DNA of 64,000 nucleotides from Vicinamibacteria bacterium (GTDB taxonomy: Bacteria > Acidobacteriota > Vicinamibacteria > Marinacidobacterales > Marinacidobacteraceae). This document shows positions 344-62,023 of this stretch, piece after piece. Positions within the stretch are counted from its first letter, which is position 1. Each line of letters begins with the position of its first letter. Under the pieces are notes generated by a model. That model worked only from the letters and a program-made list of their open reading frames with translations. It had not been told where the DNA came from and searched no databases. Location: NCBI GenBank assembly GCA_964291235.2, contig OZ219815.1, positions 32,001 through 96,000 on the forward strand. Direction: 5' to 3'. The position numbers and the translations under genes were made by a program.

Positions 344-2248
344 GTGATCCCCGCGTCCCGCTCCGCCCGCCTTGCCGGGGCGGGCCTCGTCCTGCTCCTG
401 AGCGCCGGGGTGGCGGTGGCCGGTCCGGCTTCCGGCGCCGCGGCGACCAGGAGCGCGGGCGCCGGGCGCGCCCTGCAGACCGCCAAACAGCTCTACGAGG
501 CGGCGCGGCGGGCGGAGGAGTCGCTCCGGGGATCGACGAGCGCGATGCGCAACAAGGACCGGTGGGAGAGCGTCGGCCGGAAATACCGGGCCGTGGTTCT
601 TTCCTATCCCCGCAGCGGCTATTGCGACGACGCGCTCTACTACGCCGGAGGGATCTACGGCGACGCTGCCGAACGCTTCGACGACCGCCGCCTGGCGGTC
701 CGGGCCACCGACGCCTGGGCGCTGCTGGCCCGTGGGTATCCGGCAAGCCGCTGGGCGCCGAAGGCGCTCTACGAGCAGGTGCGCCTCTATGCCGGCCGGC
801 TCGACGACGAGGCCGCGGCGCGGCGCGCGTTCGAACGGCTGAAGCTCCGGGCGGCGCGGGCGGCCGAGACCCGGATGGCGGCCGCGATCCTCGACCCGCC
901 CGAGGCGGCCCCCGAGACGGCCCCCGAGCGGACCGCCGCACGGCCGGTCAAGGTTGCGGAGCCGCCCGCCCCGGCTGGCGAGCCGTCCGCCGGGGCTGGC
1001 AAGCAGGCGGCGCCGGTAAGACCCGAGCCCGCCGATCCGCCGACCACCGTCCGGAACATCCGCCACTGGGTCGGCGATTCGCACACCCGGGTGGTGATCG
1101 ACCTGAGCGGGCCGACGCCGCACACCGAGGGCCGGCTCACGAATCCGGACCGGGTGTTCTTCGACCTCCACGGCTCGACGCCGGACGACGAACTGGAGAG
1201 CCGGGCGTTCCCCATCGAAGGCTCCCACCTCCAACAGATCCGGCTCGGCATTCCCGAGCCCAGCACCACCCGGGTGGTGCTGGACTTTTCGAGCATCCGG
1301 GAGGTGACGGTCTTCGCGCTTCCCGATCCCTACCGGCTGGTGGTGGACATCCACGGAGCGCCCCCGGTGCAGGTGGCGGACGGCTCCGCCAGCGAGGCGG
1401 AGTCCGCTTCCGCCGCGGAGCGCGAAGCCGGCGACGCATCCCGGCCGCCGCCAGCCGGTTCCACCGGCGGCGAAGAGGAGACCTCGGCTTCCGTGCCGCG
1501 CCGCACCGAGGGCGGTTACTCGATGGCGCGCCAGCTCGGGGCCCGGGTGGGCCGCATCGTGATTGACGCGGGCCACGGCGGGAAGGACCCCGGCACCCAC
1601 GCCGGGAGTCTCCGGGAGAAGGACATCGCGCTCGACATCGCCAAGCGCCTCCGCGACGACCTCGAGGGGCGCGGCTTCGAAGTGATCATGACCCGGGACA
1701 AGGACGTCTTCATCCCCCTCGAGCAACGTGCCTTCATCGCCAACAGCCGCGAGGCGGACATCTTCGTTTCCGTCCACGTCAACGCCGCCGGAAACCGGAG
1801 GGCCCGGGGTCTCGAGACCTTCTACCTGAACCTGGCGACCACCGCGGACGCGGCGGAGGTGGCCGCCCGGGAAAACGCCACCACCGGCAAGGTCCGGATC
1901 GCCGATGTCCGGAAGCTGGTGGACCAGATCATGAACCACGACCGGAAAGAGGAATCCCGCGAACTCGCGACGACGATTCAGGCGCAGATCGCCGAGACCA
2001 TTCTGGGCCGGGTCAAGCACCCTCTGAACCGGGGGGTGAAGACCGCCGGGTTCCATGTGCTGCTGGGCGCGCAGATGCCCGCGGTGCTCGTCGAGGTCGG
2101 CTTCGTGAGCAACCGGGAGGAGGCGAGGCAGCTCCGCAGCGCGTCCCACCGGAAGAAAATGGCGGCGGCCATCGCCGACGGGATCGCGCGCTACGCGGAG
2201 ACCCTCGGCCAGGTCGTCCAGACGACCGCCGCCAAGGGCAACGAGTAG
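344..2248 (+). CDS. N-acetylmuramoyl-L-alanine amidase (AmiC-like: signal peptide, TPR-like region, AMIN domain, Amidase_3)
   Basis: IVIDAGHGGKDPG, EKDIAL, FVSVHVNA and PAVLVEVGFVSN Zn-amidase motifs; AMIN-type TRVVIDL..PDRVFFDL and RVVLD..PYRLVVDI; start placed at GTG 344 (TTG 338 alternative) just after the ftsK stop. Confidence 0.88.
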   Translation: MIPASRSARLAGAGLVLLLSAGVAVAGPASGAAATRSAGAGRALQTAKQLYEAARRAEESLRGSTSAMRNKDRWESVGRKYRAVVLSYPRSGYCDDALYYAGGIYGDAAERFDDRRLAVRATDAWALLARGYPASRWAPKALYEQVRLYAGRLDDEAAARRAFERLKLRAARAAETRMAAAILDPPEAAPETAPERTAARPVKVAEPPAPAGEPSAGAGKQAAPVRPEPADPPTTVRNIRHWVGDSHTRVVIDLSGPTPHTEGRLTNPDRVFFDLHGSTPDDELESRAFPIEGSHLQQIRLGIPEPSTTRVVLDFSSIREVTVFALPDPYRLVVDIHGAPPVQVADGSASEAESASAAEREAGDASRPPPAGSTGGEEETSASVPRRTEGGYSMARQLGARVGRIVIDAGHGGKDPGTHAGSLREKDIALDIAKRLRDDLEGRGFEVIMTRDKDVFIPLEQRAFIANSREADIFVSVHVNAAGNRRARGLETFYLNLATTADAAEVAARENATTGKVRIADVRKLVDQIMNHDRKEESRELATTIQAQIAETILGRVKHPLNRGVKTAGFHVLLGAQMPAVLVEVGFVSNREEARQLRSASHRKKMAAAIADGIARYAETLGQVVQTTAAKGNE

Positions 2249-2310
2249 CAGGCGAGGAGCGCCGCAAAGCGCCAGTTCTCCCGGTGTGGGGGGGCGGCCA
2301 GTCCTCCGTG

Positions 2311-2749
2311 ACGCTGGTGGTCCGTTCCGCCGCCCCGCCTGCGGCGGGGCTGTGCCGATCTGGAGATCGGCGTTCCATTGCGGTCGCCCGCCGCCTGCGC
2401 TCGTGGTGGTTCGTCCCGCCGCCCCGCCTGCGGCGGGGCTGTGCCGATCTGGAGATCGGCGTTCCATTGCGGTCGCCCGCCGTTTGCGCTCGTGAGGGTC
2501 CGTCCCGCCGCCCCGCCGGCGGCGGGGCTGTGCCGATCTGGAGATCGGCGTTCCAGTGCGGTCGCCCGCCGTCTGCGCTCGTGCGGGTCCGTCCCGCCGC
2601 CCCGCCTGCGGCGGCGCTGTGCCGATCTGGAGATCGGCGTTCCATTGCGGTCGCCCGCCGTTTGCGCTCGTGAGGGTCCGTCCCGCCGCCCCGCCTGCGG
2701 CGGGGCTGTGCCGATCTGGAGATCGGCGTTCCATTGCGGTCGCCCGCCG
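2311..2749. repeat. Tandem array of ~5 x 89-bp REP-like units (array 1)
   Basis: GATCTGGAGATC recurs at 2357, 2446, 2535, 2624, 2713 (period 89); each unit holds two hairpins, GCCCCGCC-TGC-GGCGGGGC and GCCGATC-TGGA-GATCGGC. Confidence 0.95.
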
Positions 2750-2772
2750 CCCCGGCTGGGGCGGGGCTAAGC

Positions 2773-3024
2773 CAAAAAAACAAATGGTGGCGAACCTCGG
2801 GTTCGCCGCCTGCCTGACCGGGGGAAAGTGTGAAAGGGGGAGCCCCCCCTTTCACAAAAACAACTACTCCCATCGCAACTTGCCGCAGCCCGCCGAAGGC
2901 GGGCAAGGAAGTTCCGATGGCCGACGCGCAGCGTCGGGTGGACCCTGGACGGGGCCCCTACGCAAGGAGAATTGAAGATTCCGACTCAGGCTGCCCGGAG
3001 TTCGGGGCCCCGTCCAGGGTCCAC
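2773..3024 (+). repeat. Dispersed multi-hairpin element, copy A
   Basis: GGTGGCGAAC..GTTCGCCGCC; GGGGAAAGTGTGAAAGGGGG-AGCC-CCCCCTTTCACA; CCATCGCAACTT..CCGAAGG..AAGTTCCGATGG; CCGACGC-GCA-GCGTCGG; perfect 21-bp inverted repeat 2938-2958/3004-3024. Same architecture at four other loci. Confidence 0.85.
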
Positions 3025-3035
3025 TCCGGCCTGGG

Positions 3036-3108
<73 letters not shown>

Positions 3109-3169
3109 TACGGGCGCCCGCTCGCTTACGGGCGCGGTAGTTTGGCACAGCGCGGAGGCCGACCGCCGG

Positions 3170-11777: not shown

Positions 11778-12437
11778 ATGAGCTTCCCCCGGCGACTGCC
11801 TCGCCTGTTCCTGCCCGCGGGCATCCTGCTCGCCGCCTCGCTTGCTCTCGGTAGCGATCAGCCAACCCTCGCGGCCGCCGACGGCGCCCCGCCCGAAGGC
11901 GTCTCGGACGAAATCCGGGCGGCGGTGAACGCCGACGGCATCCGGGCCACGCTCGGTTCGGGGGTGAACCTCGACTTCTGGCTCCGGACCGATGCTCCCG
12001 GCGGCGGCGGAACGAACCCGGGAGCCACCTTCCCCGACCTCAAGGTGGGGACGCTGGTCGGAGTCGTCCGGATCGACGGCCCCTGGTCCGACTACAAGGG
12101 GAACCCCATCGAGCCGAACGTCTTCACCATGCGCTACGGGAACCGCCCGGAGGACGGCAACCACATGGGCGTCTCCGTCCATCTGGACTACGTGCTGCTC
12201 GTGCCGGTCGCCGAGGACATGACGCTCGACGTCGAGTGGGGACAGGACGACCTGAACATCATGAGCTTCGCGGCCACCGGTATCGGCCACCCCGCGGTGA
12301 TGAGTCTGGCGCCCAACTGGGACGGGATCAGCGAGCCCGCGATCTTCCAGGACGACGCCGGCGGCTGGGCGCTCGGTCATCCCTGGGACGGCGGTCTCAC
12401 CCTTGGCTTCGTCGTGGACGGCGAAGGCGAGCACTAA
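11778..12437 (+). CDS. Secreted conserved hypothetical protein
   Basis: Signal peptide; GTLVGVVRI...DYKG..I.P.VFTMRY..RPEDGNHMGV..DYVLLVP; last gene of the operon. Confidence 0.75.
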   Translation: MSFPRRLPRLFLPAGILLAASLALGSDQPTLAAADGAPPEGVSDEIRAAVNADGIRATLGSGVNLDFWLRTDAPGGGGTNPGATFPDLKVGTLVGVVRIDGPWSDYKGNPIEPNVFTMRYGNRPEDGNHMGVSVHLDYVLLVPVAEDMTLDVEWGQDDLNIMSFAATGIGHPAVMSLAPNWDGISEPAIFQDDAGGWALGHPWDGGLTLGFVVDGEGEH

Positions 12438-12439
12438 GT

Positions 12440-12692
12440 CCGGGCGGACCCGGAAGGGGGCGCGCCACGTGCGCTCGTGGCGTGACGGCCCTCGGACGTT
12501 GTAGTCGCGCCCCCTTCCGGGTCCGCTCGGCGCCCCCCCACCGGGAGAACTGGCGCGCCGGAATCGAAACTCCCTTGCCCGCCTCCGGCGTGCTGCGGCG
12601 AGTTCCGATTTGGGTTGCCATTTTGTGAAAGGGGGAGCACCCCCTTTCACACTTTCCCCCCAATCAGGCGGCCAGCGAACAAGTTCGCTGCC
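12440..12692 (-). repeat. Dispersed multi-hairpin element, copy B
   Basis: Reverse complement: GGCAGCGAAC-TT-GTTCGCTG; GGGGAAAGTGTGAAAGGGGG-TGCT-CCCCCTTTCACA; AATCGGAACTC..GAGTTTCGATT; 25-bp inverted repeat 12440-12464/12506-12530 with 1 mismatch. Confidence 0.85.
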
Positions 12693-12693
12693 G

Positions 12694-13610
12694 GGGACGG
12701 ACCCTCACCAGCGCAAACGGCGGGCGACCGTAACGGAACGCCGGCCTCCAGGCCGGCACAGCCCCGCGAAGCAGGGCGGCGGGACGGCCCCTCACGAGCA
12801 CAAACAGCGGGCGACCGCAACGGAACGCCGGCCTCCAGGCCGGCACAGCCCCGCGAAGCGGGGCGGCGGGACGGACCCTCACCAGCGCAAACAGCGGGCG
12901 ACCGCAAGGGAACGCCGGCCTCCAGGCCGGCACAGCCCCGCGAAGCGGGGCGGCGGGACGGACCCTCACCAGCGCAAACAGCGGGCGACCGCAAGGGAAC
13001 GCCGGCCTCCAGGCCGGCACAGCCCCGCGAAGCGGGGCGGCGGGACGGACCCTCACCAGCGCAAACAGCGGGCGACCGCAAGGGAACGCCGGCCTCCAGG
13101 CCGGCACAGCCCCGCGAAGCGGGGCGGCGGGACGGACCCTCACCAGCGCAAACAGCGGGCGACCGCAAGGGAACGCCGGCCTCCAGGCCGGCACAGCCCC
13201 GCGAAGCGGGGCGGCGGGACGGACCCTCACCAGCGCAAACAGCGGGCGACCGCAAGGGAACGCCGGCCTCCAGGCCGGCACAGCCCCGCGAAGCGGGGCG
13301 GCGGGACGGACTCTCACCAGCACAAACAGCGGGCGACCGCAACGGAACGCCGGCCTCCAGGCCGGCACAGCCCCGCGAAGCGGGGCGACGGGACCGACCC
13401 TCACGAGCGCAAACAGCGGGCGACCGCAACGGAACGCCGGCCTCCAGGCCGGCACAGCCCCGCGAAGCAGGGCGGCGGGACGGCCCCTCACGAGCACAAA
13501 CAGCGGGCGACCGCAACGGAACGCCGGCCTCCAGGCCGGCACAGCCCCGCGAAGCGGGGCGGCGGGACGGACCCTCACGAGCGCAAACGGCGCCGACCGT
13601 AAAGAAACGC
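12694..13610. repeat. Tandem array of 10 full + 1 partial 87-bp REP-like units (array 2)
   Basis: Units start at 12694, 12781, 12868 ... 13564; each carries GCCGGCC-TCCA-GGCCGGC and GCCCCGC-GAA-GCGGGGC hairpins; reverse-complement homologue of array 1. Confidence 0.97.
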
Positions 13611-33921: not shown

Positions 33922-33988
33922 CGCGGCGGGTGTCAGGGCGTCACCGGGGGAACTCCGTGCCCGGGCGCTGACTGGCTAGGTGGGGGCT

Positions 33989-34124
33989 GTCCCGCCGCCC
34001 CGCTTCCCGGGGCTGTGCCGGCCTGGAGGCCGGCGTTCCCGTGCCGGTGTGCTGAACGGCTGGGGGTGGGCCGTCCCGCCGCCCCGCTTCGCGGGGCTGT
34101 GCCGGTCTGGAGACCGGCGTTCCC
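33989..34124. repeat. Two REP-like units (array 3), same core as arrays 1/2
   Basis: GTCCCGCCGCCCCGCTTC(C/G)CGGGGCTGTGCCGG(C/T)CTGGAG(G/A)CCGGCGTTCCC at 33989 and 34073 (period 84), with a different linker. Confidence 0.88.
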
Positions 34125-34198
34125 TTGCCTGTGCGCCGTGAGGCTGATGGGGGTTTCCTGTGCCTGGGGGCTGTGAGGCTGAGCAGGCGGCTCTCATC

Positions 34199-34448
34199 CA
34201 ACGAGCGAAGAGAAACGGCAGCGAACTCTGTTCGCTGCCTGCGTGACCGGGGGGAAAGTGTGAAAGGGGGGCATCCCCCCTTTCACAAGAAAGCAACGAA
34301 GAATCGGAACTCGCCGCAGTGCGCCGAAGGCGCACAAGGGAGTTGCGGTTCCCGGCGCATTGCGCCGGGCGGTTCGGGGGCGGGGGCCCGAGGCTTCCCG
34401 CGCAACGGCTCCAAGCTGCCCAGCGGGGTGCCCCCGCCTCCGGACCGC
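34199..34448 (+). repeat. Dispersed multi-hairpin element, copy C
   Basis: GGCAGCGAAC-TCT-GTTCGCTGCC; GGGGAAAGTGTGAAAGGGGGG-CAT-CCCCCCTTTCACA; GAATCGGAACTC..CCGAAGG..GAGTTGCGGTTC; CCCGGCGC-ATT-GCGCCGGG; 19-bp stem 34369-34387/34430-34448 with two G-T pairs. Confidence 0.85.
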
Positions 34449-34453
34449 TCGAC

Positions 34454-34485
34454 AAAAAAGGGGGCGGGCCCGAAAGCCCGCCCCC
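34454..34485 (-). terminator. Rho-independent terminator of the TonB-dependent receptor gene
   Basis: Minus strand GGGGGCGGGC-TTTCGG-GCCCGCCCCC-TTTTTT, 23 nt after the stop. Confidence 0.85.
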
Positions 34486-34508
34486 AAAGGTTCTTGGGTT
34501 GAGATCGC

Positions 34509-37500
34509 CTAGAAGGTGATCTTCGCCATGAACTGGAAGGTGCGCGGATAGCCCCGCGTACCCGGGATGCTTCCGAAGGTGGACGATCCCAGGACCGTGC
34601 GTGGCCCGCGCCAGTTCACATGGTTGAAGAGGTCAATGAACTCGAACCGCAGGGTCAGGTTCATGTCCTCGTACATCCGCGTGGTCTTCTCGAGCGCGAC
34701 ATCCCAGTTGATGAGGACCGGGCTGCGCACCGAAGCCGTGTTGTTCGGAGCGTTGCTCAGCGTGAGTCCCTGGGTGAGTTGCGCGTCGCCGGCCGAAAGG
34801 TAGCTGGTGTGGTTCCCCTTCGGGTTGCCGCCGCCGCTCAGGTTCGCACTCGTGGGCCGTTGGTGGTTGAAGCCGTAGGCGCTCAGCGGGTTCGAGTTCT
34901 GCGTGACCACTACCGGGAAGCCGCTCCGCATGATCGCGACCGCCGAAAGCGCCCAGCCACCGAAGATCGGATTGTCACCAGGCGTGCGCCAGGTGCCGTT
35001 CACGTTGAACTGATGCGGCACGTGGACCCGCGACGGTCCGTAGTCGGCATCAAGCACCGGGCACTTGCCGTAAGCGCACTCGTCGGGCGTGTTGTAGATG
35101 ACGCTCGTCTCGTTCTCGAGCAACTGGTTGTTCTCGTAGATGTTGTCCTCGTGCTTCGTGAAGGTGTAGTTGATCCGGGCGCCCCAGTTGCCCCGGAAGC
35201 GCTTCTCGAACTCCACCCGGAGGGCGTTATAGAGCGACTTGCCGGAACTCACGTGGCGGGCGAAGACGTTCCGGAAGTGCGGATACGGACGAAGGAGCTG
35301 GCCGAGCGGCAGCGTTTCCACACCCGAAAAGCTGCCGAAGCGCGGGTCGTTGTAGAAGGGGTTGGGGTATTCGTCGTTCAACCGGTCGCCGAGCGACAGG
35401 TACTGGTCAGCCAGCTGGTTGATGTTGATCGACGAGTTGTTCGTGCCGCCGATACCGAGATCGGCGCCCTGGCTACCGACGTAGCCGATCTTCAGCGCCA
35501 GGTCGTTCCCGATGTCCCGCTGGAAGTCGAGCGACCACTTGTTGATGTACGGCGAGGCGCGGAACTGCTCGTTGAAGTACACGTTGCTGCCAATGTTCTG
35601 CAGGCGGCCGTTGGCGTTGCCGATCGGGTTCGCGATGCCGTTCGGGAACGGGTTCGACGCGGTCGCAGCCGGCGGGGTGATGCCGTCAACGCTGGTCGCG
35701 AGCGAGGTGACGTTCGTGTAGCCATAGGTCCCCAGATGGCTGGCGCCCGTGCCGCTGGGAATGGCGTAGGGCGCCCAGAAGACGGCGTATCCGCCCCGAA
35801 TCACGGTCTCGGGGTTGATCGTGTAGGCGAAGCCGACGCGGGGCCCCAGCTTCATGCCCGGCGGGTCCCACTGGTGGGTGGGGTTGCCGTCCACGCCCGC
35901 GTACATCAGGCCGCCGCGCAGCGGGAAGCCGGGAAGGCTGCCCTCGATGGCCGGGTCAAGCCCGACCTGCATCGGGAACGGGTTGGTCCGGTCCCAGCCG
36001 ACCGCGAAGCCGTTGTCGTCTTCCATGAGGCCGCTTTCGTGCTCCACGCGGAGTCCGAGGTTCAGGACGAGGTTCTGGCTGGGCCGCCAGTCGTCCTGGA
36101 TGAAGCCGCCGTAGTAGTTGATGAAGACATCGGCGGGCTCCGCGATGGTCGCGCTCCCCCCGCTCGGAATGCCGAGGAGCAGATCGGCCATCGCGCTACC
36201 GGAACCGCCGTCCGGCGCGGTGGGGCTCGGTCCCTGGGTGAAGCTCTGGTTGAAGCTCATGGAGAACCCGTTTCCGAAACTCGCGGCGTGCAGCCCCATC
36301 CTCCGGAACTGACCACCGTACTTCACGGTGTGATTGCCGAGGAACATCGAGTAGGTGCCGCTGACCTCGCGCGAGGTCCACTGGACATCGGTGTTGGACC
36401 AGGAACCGTGCGTCGAGCCGCCGTCGCCGAAGTCGGAGACGGAAATGGACGGGAACTGCCCCCCATAGCCGGCCTGCGAATAGAGCTGATCGATGAAGCC
36501 TCCCTGGATTCCGAGGCCCGCGACCTGATCCGCCCCAAACGCCGGGTTGACGACCGAGTCGTTGAAGTACGTCTGGCCGTAGCGCAACGTCAGAACCGAG
36601 GTGCTGCCAACGACGAAGGTGTTGTTCAGGGCAACGGCGTGCACATCGCGGATCAACTCCGCGGCGCCGATCCCGAAATCCGGGGCGCTATCCGCGTTCA
36701 GGAGGTCCGTGTACTGCTGGAACGCCCCTTCGCTGGACGTGTAATAGAGGTAGGTCGCCGTAGCCTGCCAGGAATCCGAGAACGAGTGACTCAGGTTCGC
36801 GGTGGACTGGAGGGCCGTCGTCTTCTGCGCTCCGGACGTACTGATTCCGCCGCCCGGCCCCAGGGTCGTCAGCAACTGGGCCAGGCCGGAGCCCGCCGGA
36901 TCAATCATGTGCGAGGGAATCCGGTTCCCCGCAAACGGTTGGCGGTTGCCGTTCGCGTCGAGGTCGAACGGGTTGTAGATCGTCGTGCCGCTCGCCGAGA
37001 AATCGCCTGCGGCCTCGGCCGCCGTCGGCAGGATGACCTGCGTGTTCTCCGCGAGGAGATCGTTGTTTCCTTCGGCCGAAAACCAGAAGAACGTGCGGTC
37101 CCGCAGGATCGGGCCGCCGAAGGAGCCGCCCCAGAGCCAGAAGGGCTGGCTCGCAAGATCGTCATCGTTGATCTGACCCGAGTCGTACGCCAACTGGTCC
37201 GTATAGGACAGCGCCCGCCAGAGCGTGTTCCGAGTGCCGGGGCGCCGCTGGTACAGGCTGCTGCCGGCCCAGTTGTTCGTGCCGCTGCGGTGGATCACGT
37301 TGAACACGCCACCTCCGGTGCGGCCCATCTCCGCATCGTAGGTGTTGACCTGCACCTTCATTTCCTGCACCGCCTCGAACACCGGGATGATGACGGTGCG
37401 GTTCCGCAGGTCCGTTGTGGAGACGCCGTCCACGGTGTAGTTGTTGCCGCGGAGCGGTCCGCCTCCCAGCGAGAGGAGCGAGGAGTTGGTCTGGTCGGAC

Positions 37501-38021
37501 TGCTTGACCCAGACCGGGTTTCCGGTATGGACCACGTTCGGCGTTCCGACACCCAGAATGAACACGTTGCGGCCCGGGGTGGGAAGCACTTCGAGTTCCG
37601 CCCGGCTCACCGCCGAGGAAACCGAGGCGGTCGCGGTCTCGATCAGCGGCGTCTCGCCGATGACCGTCACCGTTTCCTCAATCCCACCAATGGAAAGACT
37701 GGCGTCCACCACCAGGAACGAGGAGACCCCCACGATGAGGCCCTCGCTCACATACGGCGCAAAACCGCTCAGCTCGGCGCGCAGCGTGTACGTGCTCGGC
37801 TGAATGTTGGCGAAGTTGTACTCACCGACCGCGTTCGTAACCGCGGTCCGCGAAACGCCGGTGTCCTCGTTGTCCAGCGTCACCGTGACGCCGGGCAGGA
37901 CACCGCCGTCGGCGTCCTGAATGACGCCACGGACGCCGCCCTGGAATGTCTGGGCGAAAGCGCCCGACGCGAGTCCCAGAACGCCGAGCACCGCGGCGGT
38001 CCTAAACAAAAGCGATCTCAT
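34509..38021 (-). CDS. TonB-dependent receptor-like outer membrane protein (Oar-like, N-terminal carboxypeptidase-regulatory-like domain)
   Basis: Signal peptide; G.I.D..G.VLPGVTVT, EAVQEMKVQ...YDAEMGRTGGG, FIQDDWR...LNLGLR.E, PRVGFAY, LRFEF..LFNH; C-terminal Phe. Confidence 0.92.
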   Translation of the reverse strand: MRSLLFRTAAVLGVLGLASGAFAQTFQGGVRGVIQDADGGVLPGVTVTLDNEDTGVSRTAVTNAVGEYNFANIQPSTYTLRAELSGFAPYVSEGLIVGVSSFLVVDASLSIGGIEETVTVIGETPLIETATASVSSAVSRAELEVLPTPGRNVFILGVGTPNVVHTGNPVWVKQSDQTNSSLLSLGGGPLRGNNYTVDGVSTTDLRNRTVIIPVFEAVQEMKVQVNTYDAEMGRTGGGVFNVIHRSGTNNWAGSSLYQRRPGTRNTLWRALSYTDQLAYDSGQINDDDLASQPFWLWGGSFGGPILRDRTFFWFSAEGNNDLLAENTQVILPTAAEAAGDFSASGTTIYNPFDLDANGNRQPFAGNRIPSHMIDPAGSGLAQLLTTLGPGGGISTSGAQKTTALQSTANLSHSFSDSWQATATYLYYTSSEGAFQQYTDLLNADSAPDFGIGAAELIRDVHAVALNNTFVVGSTSVLTLRYGQTYFNDSVVNPAFGADQVAGLGIQGGFIDQLYSQAGYGGQFPSISVSDFGDGGSTHGSWSNTDVQWTSREVSGTYSMFLGNHTVKYGGQFRRMGLHAASFGNGFSMSFNQSFTQGPSPTAPDGGSGSAMADLLLGIPSGGSATIAEPADVFINYYGGFIQDDWRPSQNLVLNLGLRVEHESGLMEDDNGFAVGWDRTNPFPMQVGLDPAIEGSLPGFPLRGGLMYAGVDGNPTHQWDPPGMKLGPRVGFAYTINPETVIRGGYAVFWAPYAIPSGTGASHLGTYGYTNVTSLATSVDGITPPAATASNPFPNGIANPIGNANGRLQNIGSNVYFNEQFRASPYINKWSLDFQRDIGNDLALKIGYVGSQGADLGIGGTNNSSININQLADQYLSLGDRLNDEYPNPFYNDPRFGSFSGVETLPLGQLLRPYPHFRNVFARHVSSGKSLYNALRVEFEKRFRGNWGARINYTFTKHEDNIYENNQLLENETSVIYNTPDECAYGKCPVLDADYGPSRVHVPHQFNVNGTWRTPGDNPIFGGWALSAVAIMRSGFPVVVTQNSNPLSAYGFNHQRPTSANLSGGGNPKGNHTSYLSAGDAQLTQGLTLSNAPNNTASVRSPVLINWDVALEKTTRMYEDMNLTLRFEFIDLFNHVNWRGPRTVLGSSTFGSIPGTRGYPRTFQFMAKITF

Positions 38022-39675: not shown

Positions 39676-40401
39676 ATGGATCGCAGACTCTTTCTGAAAG
39701 CGGCGGCCGCGGTGAGCGGCGCCGGCATCGTGGGCGTGAACGATCGGGCGGAAGCGCTCGAACACGAGATGATCCATCTGCTCGAGGCGCCGGAGCGTCC
39801 GCCGCTCTCGAAGTCGGAGGGAGAGGAGCCGCTTTCGGAGATGCCCGCGAAGCCGACGCTGGTGGACTTCTTCAAGCATCGCTTCGCTCCGGCCTCCCAC
39901 GTGTTGCAGAGCGCGACCCGCGCCCTGAAGCACGGGATGAGCGAAGAGATCGTCCTCGCCTGCCTGCTCCATGACATCTCGGTCACCAACCTGGTGCGCG
40001 CCGACCACGGCTGGTGGTGCGCCCAGATGATCGAGCCGTACGTGCCTGAAAAGGTCGCCTGGGGCATCCGCTACCACCAGGCGCTCCGCTTCTTCCCCGA
40101 CCCGTCCGTGGGCTACGAGTACCCCGAGATGTACGTGCGGATGTTCGGTGCCGACCACGAGCCGGAGCCGTACATCAAGGCGGCCCATGACTACGCCAGA
40201 AACCACAAGTGGTACATGGAAGCGCGCTCCATCACCATGCACGACGACTACAGCTTCGAGCGCGGCGTCGAGGTCTCGATCGATCCGTTCGTGGACATCA
40301 TCGGCCGGAACTTCAAGCAGCCCAAGGAAGGGCTCGGGAACGACAACAGCCCCACCGCCCACATGTGGCGGACGATGATCAACCCCCGGCGCCGGCTGTA
40401 G
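39676..40401 (+). CDS. Tat-exported HD-domain protein (PhnZ/MIOX-like metal-ligand spacing)
   Basis: MDRRLFLK Tat motif; HVLQSATRA, ACLLHD, DHG, IRYHQ; RBS GGAGG. Confidence 0.8.
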   Translation: MDRRLFLKAAAAVSGAGIVGVNDRAEALEHEMIHLLEAPERPPLSKSEGEEPLSEMPAKPTLVDFFKHRFAPASHVLQSATRALKHGMSEEIVLACLLHDISVTNLVRADHGWWCAQMIEPYVPEKVAWGIRYHQALRFFPDPSVGYEYPEMYVRMFGADHEPEPYIKAAHDYARNHKWYMEARSITMHDDYSFERGVEVSIDPFVDIIGRNFKQPKEGLGNDNSPTAHMWRTMINPRRRL

Positions 40402-40434
40402 ATCGTCGAGCGGACCTGGAAGGGGGCGCGCCAC

Positions 40435-40716
40435 GTGGCAAAGCGGCCCAGCCTCACCGGTTTGCTCCGCAGGGTTCGACTGGGCGAAACCGTCCTGATT
40501 ACCGACCGCGGCAAACCGGTCGCGAGGATCGAGCCCTGCCAGCCGACAGACGGCGACGACCTCCAGGTAACGGCGCTGCTTGCCCGGCGAGGCATCGCCG
40601 GACCGCCGCGGGCAACTCTCGACGTCCACAGCTTTCTGAAAGCTCCCCGGCCGCGCCTCCGCCAGGGGGTCCGGGCCAGCGATGCGGTCTCGGCGGACCG
40701 GGATGAGTCCCGGTGA
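40435..40716 (+). CDS. Phd/YefM-family antitoxin (N-terminus possibly truncated)
   Basis: LTGLLRRVRLGETVLITDRGKPVARIEP; C-terminal DAVSADRDE; GTGA overlap with the following toxin. Confidence 0.75.
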   Translation: MAKRPSLTGLLRRVRLGETVLITDRGKPVARIEPCQPTDGDDLQVTALLARRGIAGPPRATLDVHSFLKAPRPRLRQGVRASDAVSADRDESR

Positions 40717-40962
40717 AGTACTGGGACTCTTCGGCGCTCGTTTCCCTGTTTGTTGACGAGTAGGAAACGGCGAACCGTCGGGCTCTGTTGCGTGAGGACC
40801 ACCAGGTCGTCACCTGGTGGGGCAGCGCCGTGGAGTGCGCCGCGGCGCTCCATCGGCTCCATCGCCAGAGCGGCCGACCAGAACCCCCCGAACCTGGATC
40901 TCGTTTCAAGCGACGCTCGCCTCTCCGAGGCGGCTTTACGCGAAGGCTTCGCCGTCCATTAG
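40713..40962 (+). pseudogene. VapC (PIN) toxin pseudogene
   Basis: MKYWDSSALVSLFVDE then in-frame TAG 40761-63; continues VVTWWGSAVECAAAL; C-terminal LVSSDARLSEAALREGF is in another frame, and the middle is missing. Confidence 0.82.
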
Positions 40963-45478: not shown

Positions 45479-45615
45479 CGACTGTGAACTACCTCTGGTG
45501 AAACCCCGAAGGGGCGTGATTCACGCCACCAACCCGTGGGGAAAGCGCCCCGCACGCAGGCAAACCGCCAGATTCGGAGTCCGGGAGGTCCCGGGGATCG
45601 TGCGAGGCGCGCTCA

Positions 45616-46797
45616 CTACGGGCTGCTTTGGGAGGGATCCCGCAGACGGGCGTCCAGATCCGAGAGAGCCCGGCGAACGTCGAGCGCCAGGCTCCGGCCG
45701 GTGGCGAGCGCCTCGCGGTCCGTTTCGGACAAACCGAGTTCCTCGGCCCACGCCTGAAGTTCCGCGACCGCGTCGTCCTCGGGACCGACCCGCCAGGCCC
45801 CCTCCACGAGGCGCAGCTCGTGAAGCTCCGCCATCCCGGCCGCCTGAACGCGCTCGCGGTAGGAAAGCACCTCGGGCAGCACGAAATCGTCGAGCGTCCC
45901 CACCACCTCGATGACCGGCCGCAGAAGGGACGGGGGGGGCGCCGGCAACACCGGGCTCGGCACCGCGGCCACGGCGTCGTAAAAGGGCCAGAACCGGCTC
46001 CCCTCGGAGCCAACTCCGGCAGCCGACGCGTAGGCGGCAAGGCCGGTCTCGGAAGCCTCCCGGTCCGCCGCGAGGGCGAGCCGGGCCTCGCGCCGACGGG
46101 CCGCTCCCTCGGGATCCCCCAGGGTGGCGGCGATCAGCACCACGCCCGCGAAAGTCTCCTCCGGAGCGGCGGCGGCGTGCCGCGCGAGTCCGCCCCCCTC
46201 TCCATAGCCGAGGAGAATCGTCCGCTCGGGGTCCATCGCGAGGCGCGGCCGGATCTGCTCGAACATCAGCCGGGCGAAGGCCTCGGTGAGCCGGTACCCG
46301 TCCGGCCCCGCCCCGAGCCCGGCACGGTCGAAGCTCGCCCAGGCGAACCCCTGGTCGAGCGCCCACCAGCCCACCAGGTCGTCGAGTTCCGTTTCGCCGC
46401 TCCCGAGTTCGGCGCCGTCCGGGCCGCGCCGGATGCCTCCGAGACCGCGATGGGCGCCAATGACCAGGGCGCCGTTCCAGTCGGGGAAACGAAGGGGATG
46501 CCGGAGGACGAAGCGGCGCGGCGGCTCACCCGGCGGCAGTCCCCGGCCGGGCGGTACCGAAGCGAGGTATCCCTGGGTGATCAGCGCATCGCCGTAAGCG
46601 CGACCGGGGAGCAGGGTCTCGCGGCCCCCGTGGATGTAGAGATAGAGGCGAGCGTCGCAGGAGATCCCGAGCGCGGCGGCCAGCAGGACGGCCGACAGGA
46701 CGCCGCGAGAAAACCCCCGCCGCGGGCGGAAAAAAGAAAACCGCCGCCGGCGGAAAAGAAAAAGCCCCGGGATCCCTGGGCGGCCGCTAGGCCTCAT
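45616..46797 (-). CDS. Alpha/beta-hydrolase-like hypothetical protein lacking the nucleophile Ser
   Basis: RFVLR.P..WNGALVIGAH, ALDQGFAWAS.D, TILLGYGEGG at the GxSxG position, RPVIEVVGTLDDFV. Confidence 0.6.
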   Translation of the reverse strand: MRPSGRPGIPGLFLFRRRRFSFFRPRRGFSRGVLSAVLLAAALGISCDARLYLYIHGGRETLLPGRAYGDALITQGYLASVPPGRGLPPGEPPRRFVLRHPLRFPDWNGALVIGAHRGLGGIRRGPDGAELGSGETELDDLVGWWALDQGFAWASFDRAGLGAGPDGYRLTEAFARLMFEQIRPRLAMDPERTILLGYGEGGGLARHAAAAPEETFAGVVLIAATLGDPEGAARRREARLALAADREASETGLAAYASAAGVGSEGSRFWPFYDAVAAVPSPVLPAPPPSLLRPVIEVVGTLDDFVLPEVLSYRERVQAAGMAELHELRLVEGAWRVGPEDDAVAELQAWAEELGLSETDREALATGRSLALDVRRALSDLDARLRDPSQSSP

Positions 46798-53013: not shown

Positions 53014-53075
53014 GGCGTGGTTTCCTTTCGTTGGCGCGATTCGCCATGAACAGCCTAAGCGAGCACAATGGACTC

Positions 53076-54848
53076 ATGGCCGACAAACTCTCTCCCCCCA
53101 TCTCCCCGCCCCCGCCCGGACCCGAGCGGCTCGCCTGGAACCGGCGCCGCTTCATCGCCGGACTCTCCGGGCTGGGGCTCGGCTCCACGCTGCTCCCCGG
53201 TGCGCTTACGGCCTGCGCCGGAGACGCGGGCGCCGTCTCCGTGGGAATGCTGCGCACCGCCCAGCAACTCGCGGGCCTCGATCTGTCCGACGATGAGTTG
53301 TCCACGGTGGCCGAGCGGCTGAACGGCGAGCGGAACCTGCTGGACGCCTACCGCGGCATCCGGGATCCCGAGATCCACAACCACCTGCCGCCGTCGTTCG
53401 TCTTCCATCCCCTGCCCCCGGGCAAGCCGATGCCGGAGACGGCCGGCGGAATGCAGCCGTCCCGGCCGGAGGCTTCCCGACCCGAGTCCGACACCGAGCT
53501 CGCGTTTCTTCCCGTCACCCACCTGGCGCGACTGGTGGAGTCCCGGCAAGTGACGTCGATGGAACTCACCGAGCTCTACCTGGCGCGGCTCAAGGAGTTC
53601 GATCCGGTCCTGATGTGCGTCGTGAACCTGACCGAGGACCTCGCCCGCGAGCAGGCGGCCCGGGCCGACGAAGAGATCGCCGCCGGGAACTACCGCGGCC
53701 CGCTCCACGGCATTCCCTGGGGAGCCAAGGATCTGCTCGCGGTGAGGGGGACGAAGACCACCTGGGGGGCGTCCCCCTACCGCGACCAGGTGATCGACGA
53801 GGACGCCACCGTTTACACGAAGCTCACCGACGCGGGCGCGGTGCTGGTCGCCAAGCTGACGATGGGCGCGCTGGCGTCGGGGGACCGCTGGTTCGGGGGC
53901 CGGACCCGGAATCCGTGGAACACCGAGCAGGGATCCAGCGGCTCCTCCGCCGGCCCGGGGGCGGCGACCGCCGCCGGCCTGGTGGGTTTCTCGATCGGCA
54001 CCGAAACGCGCGGTTCGATCATCTCGCCGTCAACCCGCAACGGCATCACCGGGCACCGTCCCACCTTCGGCCGGGTCAGTCGGGCGGGCGCCATGGCGCT
54101 CTCCTGGACGATGGACAAGATCGGCCCCATGTGCCGGAGCGCCGAGGACTGCGCGCTGGTGTTCGAAGCCATCCGGGGCGCCGACGACCTGGACCGGGCG
54201 GTTCACGATCCCCCGTTCGCCTGGGACGCCTCCGCCGACGCGGCGGCGCTCCGCGTGGGTTACGACCGGGCGGCCGTCGAAGACGAGATCGAAGACGATC
54301 CGGAAAACCCGGAACGGGCGGCGCTCCAGCGCACCGCGCAGGAGAACACCCGGGCGGCGATCGAAGTCCTCCGCGGGGCCGGTATCACGATCACGCCGTT
54401 CGAACTGCCGGAACTCGACTGGGACGACCTCTCCTTCGTCCTCTCCACGGAATCCGCCGCCGCCCACGACGCTCTCGCCCGGAGCGGGGCCGACCTCAGC
54501 ATGAGGGAGCCTCCGGAGGACAGCCGCTGGCCGGACACCTTCCGCACCTACCGCTTCGTCCCCGCGGTGGAATACATCCAGGCGATGCGGGTACGGACCC
54601 GGATCATGCGGGAATTCGACGAGGCGTTCGGCGACCTGGACCTCTTCATCGGGTCGAACCTGGGCCTGACGAACCTGACCGGACACCCCGAGGTGTGCAT
54701 GCCGAACGGATACCACGAGGGGTCGCCGACCAGCCTGCGGATGACCGGGAAGCTCTACGGGGACACCGAAATCCTCACGCTTGCGCACGCCTACCAGCAG
54801 GTCACCGACTTCCACTCGAGAAAACCCCCGGTCGGCGTCGAGCGGTAA
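53076..54848 (+). CDS. Amidase-signature enzyme with Tat signal
   Basis: NRRRFIAG; GPLHGIPWGAKD, GSSGSSAG, GTETRGSIISPS; start may be 53046. Confidence 0.9.
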   Translation: MADKLSPPISPPPPGPERLAWNRRRFIAGLSGLGLGSTLLPGALTACAGDAGAVSVGMLRTAQQLAGLDLSDDELSTVAERLNGERNLLDAYRGIRDPEIHNHLPPSFVFHPLPPGKPMPETAGGMQPSRPEASRPESDTELAFLPVTHLARLVESRQVTSMELTELYLARLKEFDPVLMCVVNLTEDLAREQAARADEEIAAGNYRGPLHGIPWGAKDLLAVRGTKTTWGASPYRDQVIDEDATVYTKLTDAGAVLVAKLTMGALASGDRWFGGRTRNPWNTEQGSSGSSAGPGAATAAGLVGFSIGTETRGSIISPSTRNGITGHRPTFGRVSRAGAMALSWTMDKIGPMCRSAEDCALVFEAIRGADDLDRAVHDPPFAWDASADAAALRVGYDRAAVEDEIEDDPENPERAALQRTAQENTRAAIEVLRGAGITITPFELPELDWDDLSFVLSTESAAAHDALARSGADLSMREPPEDSRWPDTFRTYRFVPAVEYIQAMRVRTRIMREFDEAFGDLDLFIGSNLGLTNLTGHPEVCMPNGYHEGSPTSLRMTGKLYGDTEILTLAHAYQQVTDFHSRKPPVGVER

Positions 54849-55078
54849 GGAAGCGGGGCGACACCAACGCGACAGGAACGGGAACCACCTGGTCATCAAA
54901 CAGCAGAGCCCCGCTTCCTTACCGCCCGGCGCTTCGCGCCGCGAACCACAACTCCCTTGCGCGCCGTTGGCGCGCGGCGGCGAGTTGCGATTCGTCGTTA
55001 CCGTCTTGTGACAGGGGGTGAACCCCCTTTCACACTTTCCCCCGAACTCGCAGGCAGCGAACAAAGTTCGCTGCCATT
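54842..55078 (-). repeat. Dispersed multi-hairpin element, copy D
   Basis: Reverse complement GGCAGCGAAC-TTT-GTTCGCTGCC; GGGGAAAGTGTGAAAGGGGG-TTCA-CCCCCTGTCACA; GAATCGCAACTC..GAGTTGTGGTTC; CGGCGC-GAA-GCGCCG; inverted repeat GCGGTAAGGAAGCGGGG (from 54842) / CCCCGCTTCCTTACCGC (ending 54926). Confidence 0.85.
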
Positions 55079-55124
55079 GTTCATTGCCGTGGTGGCAACT
55101 CACCAGGCCTTCGGATCCGGGTAG

Positions 55125-55379: not shown

Positions 55380-55403
55380 AGGTCGGCCCAGTCTCCCCGC
55401 GGA

Positions 55404-56729: not shown

Positions 56730-56845
56730 GGACTCCCCTTTCCCGCAGGAAAATCGGAACGTAGCGGAACCCGAGGGGGCACTTCAAATGTCGCAGGACG
56801 CGAGCGCCGCGCCCGCCCGTTCCGAAGTGAGATAATTTGAAGTTC

Positions 56846-58006: not shown

Positions 58007-58012
58007 CTTCCG

Positions 58013-59251: not shown

Positions 59252-59256
59252 CGGGG

Positions 59257-61689
59257 ATGGCCGAGGAAGACCGGCAGAACGGGACCGCGGCGCGTGATGA
59301 GGAAGAGGTGCGCGAAGAATCCACCGAGTCCGTCGAGGAAACGGAGGAATCCGCCCAGACGACGGAGGAGTCCGCCGGCGTCTCGATAGTCGGAGCCCTC
59401 CGGGAGGCGCTCTCCGGGAAGAAGCCCCTTTCCCCTGAGGAAGGCGGCGGGGCACCCGAGGAGGAGGCCGCCGCCGCGGCCCCGCGAGACGAGCCACCGT
59501 CGGGAGGGGCCGACGAATCCGACCCCGGCGCCGCGGAACGGGGCGGCTGGTTTCGCCGGAAGTTCGCCCTCCGCCAGAGCCTGCGGGTCCAGATCGCGGC
59601 CGGCCTCGGGGCGGCCATCGTCTTCACCCTCCTCGCGAGCATCATCGCCCTCGTCGCGTTCTTCCAGGTCGGTCGGATCCAGCGGGAAATCAACACCGAC
59701 TACGTGCCGGCGCTGACCCGCGCCGTCCAGATCGGGCAACTTGCGACCGATCTGGCGGGCGCCGCTCCCCGGCTGGTGGCGGAAGCCAGGAACCGCCAGC
59801 TCTCCTCCGATGCCTCGCAGGAAGAGAGTCCCGCCGCCGCGGCCGGAAACATCGACCTGCTGGAGAACGCGGCGCGCATCATCGAGCTTTCGTCGGACCT
59901 CGCGGTCGGTGAACGGACGGCCGGGCTCCGGCAGTTCTCCGCCGATCTCGCGAGCAACCTTCGGGACATCCAGGTCTCGGTCGAGGGCGGCGTCGAGTTT
60001 CAGGAACGGCTGGCGCAACTGCAGGAAGAAACGGCCGTGGAGACCCGGGAGTTGAACGAACTCATCGGACCCCTGCTCGACAACCAGGTCTTTTTCATGG
60101 CGACCGGTCTCCGCACGCTCGACGACGAGCCGGCTCCGATCGAGGTGCGGGGTTCGGAAACGGAAGTGATCTACCAGCACGCCCTGAGCGCCATCGATGC
60201 GCGCGGCAACCTCGCCGGCAGCCTCATCAGCGACGTGATCGTGCAGGACGACCTCGAACTGGTCGAAACCCTCGAAGAGAGGTTCCGGGCCGCCACCGCC
60301 GGCACCTTCCGGGCGCTCGACACCCTCGGTGACCGCGCTCCCCCGCAACTGGAGACGACCCTCAACACGATCTACGAACTGGGCCTGGACCCGGAGGGGG
60401 CGTTCCCGGTACGCCGGCGCTATCTCGCCGAACTTCGGAACCAGCTCGCCTACCTGGCGCGGAACGAGTCCATCACGGACTCGCTGGAATCCGCGGTGGC
60501 CAGCCTGACCGTGGGACTCGAGGTGGACGCGCTGGCCGCCACCGAGGAGTCGGAGGCGGCGCTGAATCTCGGGAGATCCCTGCTCGTGGCGCTGAACGTC
60601 CTGGGAATCAGCAGTGCCGCGCTGATTCTGTGGCTCTTTGTGGGCCGGTTCCTGATCGCGCGGCTGACCGCCCTTTCCCGCGCGATGCGCCGGATGGCGG
60701 GAGGCGATCTGGAGACCCGCATCGAGGTTCGCGGCCAGGACGAGGTCGGGGAGATGGCGCAGGCTCTCGAAGTCTTCCGGCAGCACGCCCTCGAGGTGCA
60801 GCGGCTCAACCTGGTGGAGGAACTCGCCACCCGGGTCGAAGCGCAGAACGAGGAATTGGCGAAGACGCTGGAAGACCTGGAAAAGGCGCAGGACCAGATC
60901 GTCATGCAGGAGAAGCTCGCGTCCCTCGGCCAGTTGACGGCCGGAATCGCGCATGAGATCAAGAACCCGCTGAACTTCGTCAATAACTTCGCCGACGTCT
61001 CGAGCGACCTGCTGGAGGATCTCAAGGAAGAGCTGGAAACCGTCAAGGAAAACGTGCCCGAGGAATCACTGGCGGAAATCGACGACATCAGCACCGATCT
61101 CTCCGGGAACCTCGAGCGGATCGTGCACCACGGAAAACGGGCGAGTTCCATCGTTTACGGCATGCTCGAACACGCCCGGAAGGAAGGCGGCGAGACCCGT
61201 CCGACGGAGATCAACGCCATGCTCGAGGAATACATCGCGCTCGCCTTCCACTCGATGCGCGCCGTGGACAACCGCTTCCAGATGACCATCCGGAAGAATC
61301 TGAGTGACGACGTCGGCGCCATCGAAGCCATCCCGCAGGACCTGAGCCGGGTGTTCCTGAACATCGTGACAAATGCCTGCCAGGCGACCTTCGACAAGCA
61401 ACTGGACGAGAGTTCGGATCCCGGCTATCAGCCCGAACTGGCCGTGAGCAGCAGCAAGGAGAACGGCCAGGTGGAAGTGCGCATCAAGGACAACGGTCCC
61501 GGCATCCCGCCAAACCACCTGGCCAAGATCTTCGAGCCGTTTTTCACCACGAAGGACACCGACAAGGGAACGGGGCTCGGCCTCTCCCTTTCGCACGACA
61601 TCATCCGGGGGCACGGCGGCACGCTGGCCGTGAACTCGGAGGTCGGCCAGGGCGCCGAATTCGTGATCACCCTTCCCGCCGCGTCGTAG
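59257..61689 (+). CDS. Sensor histidine kinase (periplasmic helical sensor, HAMP, HisKA, HATPase)
   Basis: Two TMs; HAMP (GDL...I...GQDEVGEMA); EKLASLGQLTAGIAHEIKNPL; N-box; DNGPGI, FEPFFTTK, GTGLGL. Confidence 0.95.
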   Translation: MAEEDRQNGTAARDEEEVREESTESVEETEESAQTTEESAGVSIVGALREALSGKKPLSPEEGGGAPEEEAAAAAPRDEPPSGGADESDPGAAERGGWFRRKFALRQSLRVQIAAGLGAAIVFTLLASIIALVAFFQVGRIQREINTDYVPALTRAVQIGQLATDLAGAAPRLVAEARNRQLSSDASQEESPAAAAGNIDLLENAARIIELSSDLAVGERTAGLRQFSADLASNLRDIQVSVEGGVEFQERLAQLQEETAVETRELNELIGPLLDNQVFFMATGLRTLDDEPAPIEVRGSETEVIYQHALSAIDARGNLAGSLISDVIVQDDLELVETLEERFRAATAGTFRALDTLGDRAPPQLETTLNTIYELGLDPEGAFPVRRRYLAELRNQLAYLARNESITDSLESAVASLTVGLEVDALAATEESEAALNLGRSLLVALNVLGISSAALILWLFVGRFLIARLTALSRAMRRMAGGDLETRIEVRGQDEVGEMAQALEVFRQHALEVQRLNLVEELATRVEAQNEELAKTLEDLEKAQDQIVMQEKLASLGQLTAGIAHEIKNPLNFVNNFADVSSDLLEDLKEELETVKENVPEESLAEIDDISTDLSGNLERIVHHGKRASSIVYGMLEHARKEGGETRPTEINAMLEEYIALAFHSMRAVDNRFQMTIRKNLSDDVGAIEAIPQDLSRVFLNIVTNACQATFDKQLDESSDPGYQPELAVSSSKENGQVEVRIKDNGPGIPPNHLAKIFEPFFTTKDTDKGTGLGLSLSHDIIRGHGGTLAVNSEVGQGAEFVITLPAAS

Positions 61690-62015
61690 GTGGTTTCCGA
61701 ACGGGGCCGTGAGTCCGGTCAGGTCCCGTAAGTCAACCCGAAACCGAGTCGAGGCCCCCTTCGGAAACCACCGGCGCTGCGCGCCGGAAATCGGAACTTT
61801 CCTCGCTGTGGCAAGCCTACGGCGCGCTGTGCGAACCCAAGTTCCGATTTGACGCCGTGTTCTTGTGAGATCGGCGGTGCTTCGGCTGGTCTTGCTGCTA
61901 GCCGGGATTTCTCATACCTCATGGCCCAAGGTGCCGCGCGGATCACACTTTCCCCCCGGTCACGACGACACGGGGCGAACCCAAGGTTCGCTGCCATTTG
62001 TTTTCGCTCGTTCGA
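61689..62015 (-). repeat. Dispersed multi-hairpin element, copy E (central hairpin expanded)
   Basis: Reverse complement AACGAGCGAAAACAAATGGCAGCGAACC-TTG-GGTTCGC; GACCGGGGGGAAAGTGTGA..(longer insert)..TCACAAG; AAATCGGAACTT..AAGTTCCGATTT; CCGGCGC-GCA-GCGCCGG; 20-bp inverted repeat 61689-61708/61753-61772. Confidence 0.8.
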
Positions 62016-62023
62016 AATCCGGA

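Follow-up and report, generated by a model that had tools for sequence, protein, structure and literature searches.

A Long Terminal Hairpin of Nearly Constant Length in a Structured Extragenic Repeat of Marine Acidobacteria

The Repeat and Its Copies in the Window

The stretch of DNA analysed here, called the window throughout, is 64,000 nucleotides (64 kb) long and belongs to the 3.45-Mb genome of a Vicinamibacteria bacterium. It carries five copies (A to E) of a repeated, extragenic unit of ~280 nt that consists of five helices, P1 to P5, with P5 as the hairpin at one end. Read in the orientation of copy A, the unit runs from an A-rich run through P1, a purine tract, P2, P3, P4 and P5 to a tail. 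P1 is a GC hairpin of 10–11 bp, P2 has the arms TGTGAAAGGGGG and CCCCCTTTCACA, P3 is a bipartite helix with an internal loop, P4 is a 6-bp helix closed by a GNA triloop, and the tail beyond P5 is short and CTCGAC-like. The relevant features of the window are the following.

2319..2749: tandem repeats of an 89-bp, REP-like double hairpin, flanking copy A at its P1 end
2786..2937 (+): scaffold of copy A, with P1 at 2786-2810, P2 at 2829-2856, P3 at 2872-2918 and P4 at 2921-2937
2820-2829 (+): purine mirror strand of copy A, preceding P2
2936..3026 (+): P5 of copy A, stem of 23 bp with 0 mismatches, loop of 45 nt
12440..12690 (-): copy B, with P5 at 12440-12530, 24/25 paired, loop of 41 nt
12694-13610 (87 bp x 10.6) and 33955-34136: sister REP arrays
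34222..34455 (+): copy C, with P5 at 34366-34451, 22 bp including 3 G-T, loop of 42 nt
40404..40437 (+): solo remnant, made of the element tail and one P5 arm
45530..45624 (-): hairpin of a second repeat family, stem of 27 bp, loop of 42 nt, unrelated in sequence
54839..55075 (-): copy D, with P5 at 54839-54928, core 18/18 paired, loop of 48 nt
61689..62000 (-): copy E, with P5 at 61689-61772, 19/20 paired, loop of 44 nt

A first-pass annotation of this DNA had drawn attention to five terminal hairpins with loops of 41–51 nt. All five, the 87-nt hairpin at 2938-3024 included, are present where it placed them, and they are homologous copies of one terminal helix; its loop lengths are right for copies A (45 nt), B (41 nt), C (42 nt) and E (44 nt), but the loop of copy D measures 48 nt and not 51.

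The P5 ends of these copies lie close to gene ends. In copy A, 8 nt separate P5 from the 3′ end of a tRNA-Phe gene on the opposite strand; in copy B, P5 begins 3 nt past the TAA of ORF 11778..12437; in copy E, it starts on the final base of the TAG of ORF 59257..61689. ORF 53031..54848 reads across the tail of copy D and stops at a TAA within the P5 stem. A terminator lies between the P5 of copy C and the convergent gene 34509..38021, whose product is outer-membrane-receptor-like, and a marginal Rfam suhB/mmgR match at 34447-34525 on the minus strand (41.1 bits against a gathering score of 41) overlies what appears to be this ordinary terminator. The arm in the solo remnant is 94% identical to that of copy B and lies 3 nt past the TAG of ORF 39676..40401, with unrelated sequence beyond; the translation of 40440-40720, which follows this arm in place of the remainder of the element, resembles by eye a Phd/YefM-type antitoxin.

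Some of the copies have additions of their own. The P2 of copy E is expanded by ~75 nt (61868-61943). Contigs from other runs span this part with a normal short P2 loop, and they may represent other copies or strain variants; over 53500-63000, the DNA contigs of four other runs break at repeats and yield no usable junction. A small repeat, CCCCCACCGGGAGAACTGG, is inserted in the P4 loop of copy B (12530-12560) and of the copy at G000:C2:1107679 (G000 being the present genome); it has its own inverted pairs and about 10 stand-alone loci. Another repeat, of ~225 nt, sits beside copy D at 55139-55362 and occurs at at least 12 other loci of the genome.

Copy Number and Distribution

Counting exact matches to a 13-mer of P2 gives 30 occurrences in the 3.45-Mb genome, an nhmmer profile recovers 36 full-core copies, and a covariance model of P1–P4 finds 41; whole-element tandem duplications are present as well. 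The covariance model also matches 19 of the 28 genomes of the family, spread over 3 of its 7 genera. Every one of the 15 other genomes of the genus carries the element, with between 5 and 103 matches per genome. A second genus contributes one genome with 78 matches, and two of the three genomes of a third genus have 7–28 weaker ones; no covariance-model match was found in the four remaining genera. Several of the related MAG records are, judging from their isolate names, presumably derived from sponges. Viral contigs gave 0 exact matches to a 20-mer of P2.

Rfam scans of the window, of positions 2200-3120 and of two loci, by gathering score and by E-value, gave no family for the element. Within the window, the gathering score was reached only by tRNA and, marginally, by the suhB/mmgR match on the terminator mentioned above, and the best matches on P5 were chance hits of miRNA-precursor models at 18–26 bits. 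A literature search on Vicinamibacteria, sponges and repeats turned up no description of the element. The element is an uncatalogued structured repeat, REPIN-like but more elaborate.

Pairing and Covariation in the P5 Stem

The P5 hairpins are far beyond what chance would produce. Perfect stems of at least 16 bp with loops of 10–60 nt were sought throughout the 3.45-Mb genome; 38 such inverted repeats were returned, 20 of them in the 36 tabulated P5s and 2 in other P5s, and the same scan of a mononucleotide-shuffled sequence of 1 Mb returned 0. When 19 copies were aligned and folded with RNAalifold, 67 pairs were obtained, 29 of which have changes on both sides; in the P5 columns 221-229, nearly all pairs covary, with a single broken cell out of 171. 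The stems are ungapped and ~94% Watson-Crick (604 Watson-Crick pairs and 22 + 15 wobble pairs).

The first-pass annotation had noted that only a loose frame is shared by stems that pair almost perfectly, and this is confirmed. The arm frame is CGGGCGG-N5-6-G(G/A)(A/G)-N-GGGGC, the base of P5 reads CGGGCGG / CCGCTCG in 17 of the 19 aligned copies, and the stems have 0–1 mismatches over ~20 bp. Identity of the arms among copies is 0.58–0.78, with the frame alone being fixed. The further claim that the stem sequence differs in every copy goes somewhat too far. The stems do differ, by compensated substitutions, but their arms share a common origin, and P5s of recent duplicates are almost the same. 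Such recent duplicates carry fresh, uncorrected mismatches in the stem, which indicates that stem repair is not immediate. Compensation can also be followed at a single locus: at the site of copy E in two relatives (G015 and G010), P5 differs at four arm positions, each matched by a change in the opposite arm, and its loop is alignable. It is thus shown that the arms of P5 evolve by compensated changes, both among paralogues and at orthologous loci.

The P5 Loop

Of the 36 copies in this genome, 33 have a loop of 39–49 nt, and this tight distribution bears out the earlier impression that the loops are similar in length. No excess of secondary structure was found in 34 loops of this genome (mean z −0.04) or in 43 loops of relatives (mean z −0.11). 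As regards sequence, loop identity tracks scaffold identity: it reaches 0.77–0.90 in the most similar pairs and, below a scaffold identity of ~0.9, sinks to that of shuffled sequence (0.47). Among 2926 loop pairs, 50 exceed the null in the forward sense and 0 as reverse complements. The loops had been described as unrelated by eye; this is correct for distant pairs, which are at shuffled identity, but close copies align as ordinary diverged homologues.

It had also been proposed, by analogy to guide/target loops, that the scaffold presents a variable segment. The 36 loops were compared with their own genome, and no match rose above the shuffled controls, bar one to a paralogous P5; the best matches outside P5 reached 26–36 bits, against a mean of 28.6 and a maximum of 36.2 for shuffled loops. 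Searches of phages with hairpins A and E and of plasmids with hairpin A gave nothing beyond E ~0.8. The guide proposal is not supported on this count, as these searches offer no complementary targets above chance. Three findings had been named in advance as speaking against it: loops that align as homologues and the absence of targets, both of which were observed, and a broad range of loop lengths, which was not. Moreover, most of the loop is paired away in some copies. Because the loop has no structure and no targets, and because its identity follows that of the scaffold, we infer that it is a drifting spacer and not a guide, and that it carries no information. A guide RNA scaffold of the CRISPR type or of the TnpB/IscB omega RNA type was considered separately and rejected, since there are no targets, no Rfam match and no TnpB-type domain (PF07282) match in G000, a genome that is 90% complete.

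Hairpin Length and Template Switching

It is worth pointing out that the property of P5 that is held most closely, besides pairing, is its length. Measured from GCGG to CCGC, the hairpin has a median length of 81 nt with an interquartile range of 80–82 (n = 71 copies from several genomes). Longer stems come with shorter loops (slope −1.8), stems ranging over 18–34 bp and loops over 44–13 nt. Six copies with stems above a cut-off of 26 bp, measuring 28–34 bp, have loops of 24–13 nt, and their totals are still 79–83 nt. The same is seen at one tRNA-flanking locus that is orthologous in five species: the GCGG-anchored stems are 19, 19, 28, 32 and 33 bp long and the unanchored arms 26–40 nt, and the apical sequences are unrelated, with totals again of 79–83 nt. 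In the G000 copy at this locus, likeness to the loop end of a relative is seen on the 3′ side of the stem extension and not on its 5′ side, a one-sided resemblance, read by eye at one locus, that is expected of a templated copy from arm to arm.

Template switching between the arms had been named in the first-pass annotation as the simpler alternative to a functional segment. According to PMC8794818, template switching in replication can create and maintain perfect stems in one event, and it would explain both one-step compensation and stem extension at unchanged length. The proposal is partly supported, in that stems at orthologous loci have extended into the loop independently at totals of 79–83 nt; the case consists of a handful of loci read by eye. 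In its strongest form, it would make P5 a passive and functionless DNA palindrome, descended from a founder quasi-palindrome whose stem was kept perfect by template switching and whose length was kept by the rarity of indels. The documented mechanism, the ~94% Watson-Crick stems with their weak strand bias, the symmetric wobble of the second family (below), the independent stem extensions and the fresh mismatches of recent duplicates would all sit well with such a palindrome. What it does not readily accommodate is a length with an interquartile range of 2 nt over several species when the loops are saturated to random identity, or the convergence of two unrelated families on the same stem and loop sizes. 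Spacer inversion, which is said to be a product of template switching (PMC8604942), was found in 0 of the 2926 pairs of P5 loops. For these reasons, we regard a purely passive palindrome as unlikely. Selection on length or on hairpin size is likely, because the spacers are saturated and the length barely moves, and template switching combined with selection for a hairpin fits best.

Placement at Gene Ends and the Acting Strand

The placement of the element is strongly polar. The neighbour on the P5 side, a gene or a tRNA, points at the element in 33 of the 35 copies for which this could be determined; on the P1 side, 16 neighbours point towards it and 15 away. Twenty of the 36 copies lie within 13 nt of the end of the neighbour, while another five are inner members of tandem pairs. 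The genome has 58 tRNA genes, and seven of them are P5-side neighbours; overall, the neighbours are tRNAs and genes that are syntenic across the genus. In several copies, the stop codon ends 5–8 nt ahead of the GCGG anchor, with the first paired base a few nucleotides on, and an ORF that enters the hairpin and stops inside it, as at copy D, is found in G015 and G010 too. A bias by replication direction was rejected by eye, since the orientations of the copies alternate within the 64-kb window. P5 was also considered as an intrinsic terminator and rejected, as it is adjoined by P4 or by the CTCGAC tail instead of a T tract; the helix that fits the pattern is P1. Together with the T-rich run, P1 is terminator-like on the strand co-linear with the host gene, and in copy D, P1 (55053-55075) and its T-rich tail give a terminator-like score on the plus strand.

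Taken at face value, such placement would suit a hairpin that serves the host as RNA. P5 would then act in the host transcript only, by stabilising the 3′ end, stalling the ribosome or directing processing, P1 would be the terminator, and the copies would persist because each locus benefits. A perfect stem of ~20 bp suits RNase III, and the polarity, the closeness to gene ends, the stop codons just before the anchor and the terminator-like P1 all point in the same direction. REPs that lie up to ~15 nt from a stop codon reportedly stall ribosomes in E. coli. That orthologous copies stay paired across species and that the second family is placed likewise would also agree with a host function. 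Seven copies, however, follow tRNAs, where no ribosome terminates, and a benefit at each locus is difficult to reconcile with a copy number that ranges from 5 to 103 among congeners and with sites that are empty in some of them.

The evidence on which strand folds speaks against it as well. In the 19 aligned copies, G-U pairs favour the strand antisense to the host gene by 30 to 5, a count that omits one conserved G-T at the base of P5, and in 70 copies from other genomes by 60 to 16; both counts overstate the number of independent events, as the copies are related and the 70-copy alignment was fitted to a model of the antisense strand. The bias extends over the scaffold and includes P1, the supposed terminator (6:0 and 27:5 for the antisense strand); it is weaker in P5 (22:15 and 28:14). 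The alifold energy is −129.3 kcal/mol on the antisense strand against −110.2 kcal/mol on the other, the single-sequence energy is lower on the antisense strand in 18 of 19 copies, and the GNA triloop of P4 and the covarying tandem G-A internal loop of P3 read on that strand. The two lines of evidence are therefore in conflict: placement and the T tract would have the strand co-linear with the host gene transcribed, while the wobble pairs and the predicted energies would have the opposite strand fold. A hairpin that acts in the host transcript alone seems to us conceivable but doubtful.

Mobility, Islands and Candidate Enzymes

Comparison with relatives shows that individual sites can be with or without the element. 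G007 and G010 have no element at the site of copy D, where their genes are only 73–75 nt apart, and the corresponding intergenic region of G004 has an element in the opposite orientation that faces the other convergent gene. The site of copy E is without the element in G003, G012 and G005, and REP hairpins are found there instead. Three features outside the window bear on how the element may move or be used.

G000:C1:16193-16924 (1096..1827 of locus L144): ORF of a RAYT-like Y1 transposase
G000:C2:1672848-1681052: integrase island of 8.2 kb, integrated in helix P2 of an element copy
G000:C2:514020-569973: integrase island of 56 kb, integrated in helix P2 of an element copy

The RAYT-like gene is the only one of its kind in this genome; its product has 243 aa and an HUH motif and matches PF01797 at 33 bits. 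On either side of the gene stand, instead of P5, inverted arrays of a double-hairpin REP, the same REP that forms the 87–89-bp tandem arrays beside copies A, B and C. The Y1 gene is present in 12 of the 15 genus genomes and was not found in G013, a 91% complete genome that is the richest in copies (103). The reverse transcriptase domain RVT_1 has 0 matches in G000 and is missing from 13 of the 15 genus genomes, on which ground a retron msr/msd origin was rejected. There is no correlation between copy number and the Y1 or the RT gene. Tyrosine recombinases of any type, not IntI specifically, have 14 matches.

The two islands have ends that are 95% identical and related open frames of 418 residues with tyrosine-integrase domains, and both are bounded by the 10-bp direct repeat CCCCCTTTCA. 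Their position in P2, together with this boundary, indicates that the element serves as their attachment site. A group II intron had been considered for these two copies with an interrupted P2, and it was rejected, there being no Rfam match and the interruptions being the islands.

A Second Repeat Family and the Mirror-Repeat Module

The hairpin at 45530..45624 belongs to a second family with 17–22 hairpins in this genome, which have stems of 17–34 bp and loops of 34–51 nt (median 42–43). Its consensus arm, CCCGTGGGGAAAGCGCCCCGCAC, is unrelated in sequence to P5, and the geometry common to the two families speaks against the 20-bp/43-nt design being a chance property of a single founder. The second family is likewise found at gene ends. 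ORF 45616..46797 ends at a TAG inside the arm, the reading frame having been checked for this window copy, and in about 13 of the 22 best rows a triplet resembling a stop codon is found no more than 6 nt from the CCCGTGG core, either just ahead of the core or within the extended stem. Its wobble pairs are symmetric between the strands (21:21). These hairpins are followed by a module of the form GTGGGGAGGGG-AAA-CCCCTCCCCAC-GCCCCTCCCCC, which has the P2-like layout of a mirror repeat and a hairpin.

In the first family, the purine tract before P2 mirrors the purine arm of P2 in every copy, as in GGGGGGAAAG-TGT-GAAAGGGGGG ... CCCCCCTTTC (window 2820-2856), and to judge from this symmetry, the module could form an intramolecular triplex. 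The symmetry is kept in variants in which a third-strand A is changed to T, in L008, which is changed at all three positions, and in the GGGGAGGGG version of the second family, for example at G000:C1:954600-954650. Mirror repeats followed by a hairpin also occur in gut Firmicutes (L027, L042, L044, L062 and L083, all Oscillospiraceae MAG records). In L083, the module lies inside a ~180-nt insertion at the P12 tip of a class A RNase P RNA (249 bits), on that RNA's own strand.

The two families might represent an undescribed class of elements that target 3′ ends, fold on the antisense strand and use a long hairpin as a recognition site that is read by structure and free in sequence. This suggestion builds on three shared features, namely a hairpin of ~81–89 nt flush with stop codons or tRNA 3′ ends, a GNA-triloop hairpin and the purine mirror-repeat module, and we put it forward as a speculative one with the odds well against it. 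The attC sites of integrons have its logic, that of a structure-read site, in a different system.

Interpretation

The explanation we prefer, with a probability of roughly 0.55, is that P5 is a REPIN-like terminal palindrome of an extragenic, lineage-specific repeat and that its structure and length are under selection. Its two arms of ~20 bp and its spacer of ~43 nt would be specified by structure and length and not by sequence. Pairing would be kept through selection for a hairpin in single-stranded nucleic acid, with template switching between the arms helping to repair or extend the stem in one step at unchanged length, and the hairpin would be the structure-recognised end when the element is copied or moved. 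Transcription through from the host gene may then place a stop-codon-flush hairpin in a 3′ trailer that ends at P1 and the T tract. There are points that count against this explanation: no enzyme is tied to the element, the arms keep a frame alone, and the strand evidence is in conflict.

P5 offers a clean natural case of a long helix in which pairing and length are held and the bases are free, at paralogous as well as orthologous loci, and it should be useful for separating selection from template-switch repair in the evolution of stems. The element itself is an uncatalogued structured repeat of marine and presumably sponge-associated Acidobacteria that marks the 3′ ends of genes and provides an attachment site for islands, and if unrecognised it would confuse the annotation and assembly of these genomes.

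Comparison with Known Systems

The first-pass annotation had compared P5 with the variable terminal structures of attC sites, as part of its idea of a conserved scaffold that presents a variable segment. The description is sound, since P1–P4 are conserved and the P5 stem varies with its pairing kept; the guide or attC function attached to it is not supported. The likeness to attC is considerable. An attC site sits at the stop codon of the upstream cassette gene, it is the bottom strand that folds, and the core motifs RYYYAAC ... GTTRRRY stand at the base of the stem. In P5, too, structure is conserved with the sequence free and the central part variable, the hairpin abuts stop codons, the strand that appears to fold is antisense to the adjacent gene, and tyrosine recombinases are present in the genome (the 14 matches above). 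The base of P5, however, is without the RYYYAAC/GTTRRRY (R′/R″) cores, its perfect stems are without extrahelical bases, its length is fixed where that of attC is widely variable, it carries an extra scaffold, and its neighbours are tRNAs and syntenic core genes and not cassettes. With cores, extrahelical bases and cassette context all absent, an attC-like terminal structure is not supported; with no targets found in the searches described above and the loops being ordinary drifting homologues, the reading as a guide or folded recombination site is largely refuted, and we consider it very improbable.

The Correia/NEMIS, ERIC and SMAG repeats are intergenic, are transcribed together with the genes beside them and give rise to long hairpins in RNA. 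In those families, the whole element is a hairpin by virtue of its terminal inverted repeats, whereas here the hairpin is one domain among several and its arms covary. Template switching at quasi-palindromes, as treated in PMC8794818, accounts for compensation in one step and for stems that lengthen while the total stays constant; being a mutational process, though, it is not a function, and it leaves the shared 20-bp/43-nt geometry and the placement unexplained.

This leaves the REPINs. In these, the spacer is less conserved, its length and its capacity to form a hairpin appear critical, and compensatory changes are common, as set out in passages of PMC3116915. P5 has the same inverted arms and spacer hairpin with the length kept and compensatory changes, in an extragenic position, and the element shares with REPINs its vertical persistence and variable copy number. 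The likeness extends to the REP-RAYT system in that a single-copy RAYT-like gene is present and REP arrays occupy the same intergenic regions as the element, although this gene is flanked by another REP type and not by P5. The differences are equally clear: REPIN arms are invariant 16-mers and those of P5 keep a frame alone (identity 0.58–0.78), P5 is fused to a conserved four-helix scaffold, and the element is polar to the 3′ end of the neighbouring gene. Judged by its build, P5 nevertheless has in the REPIN its closest known anatomy.
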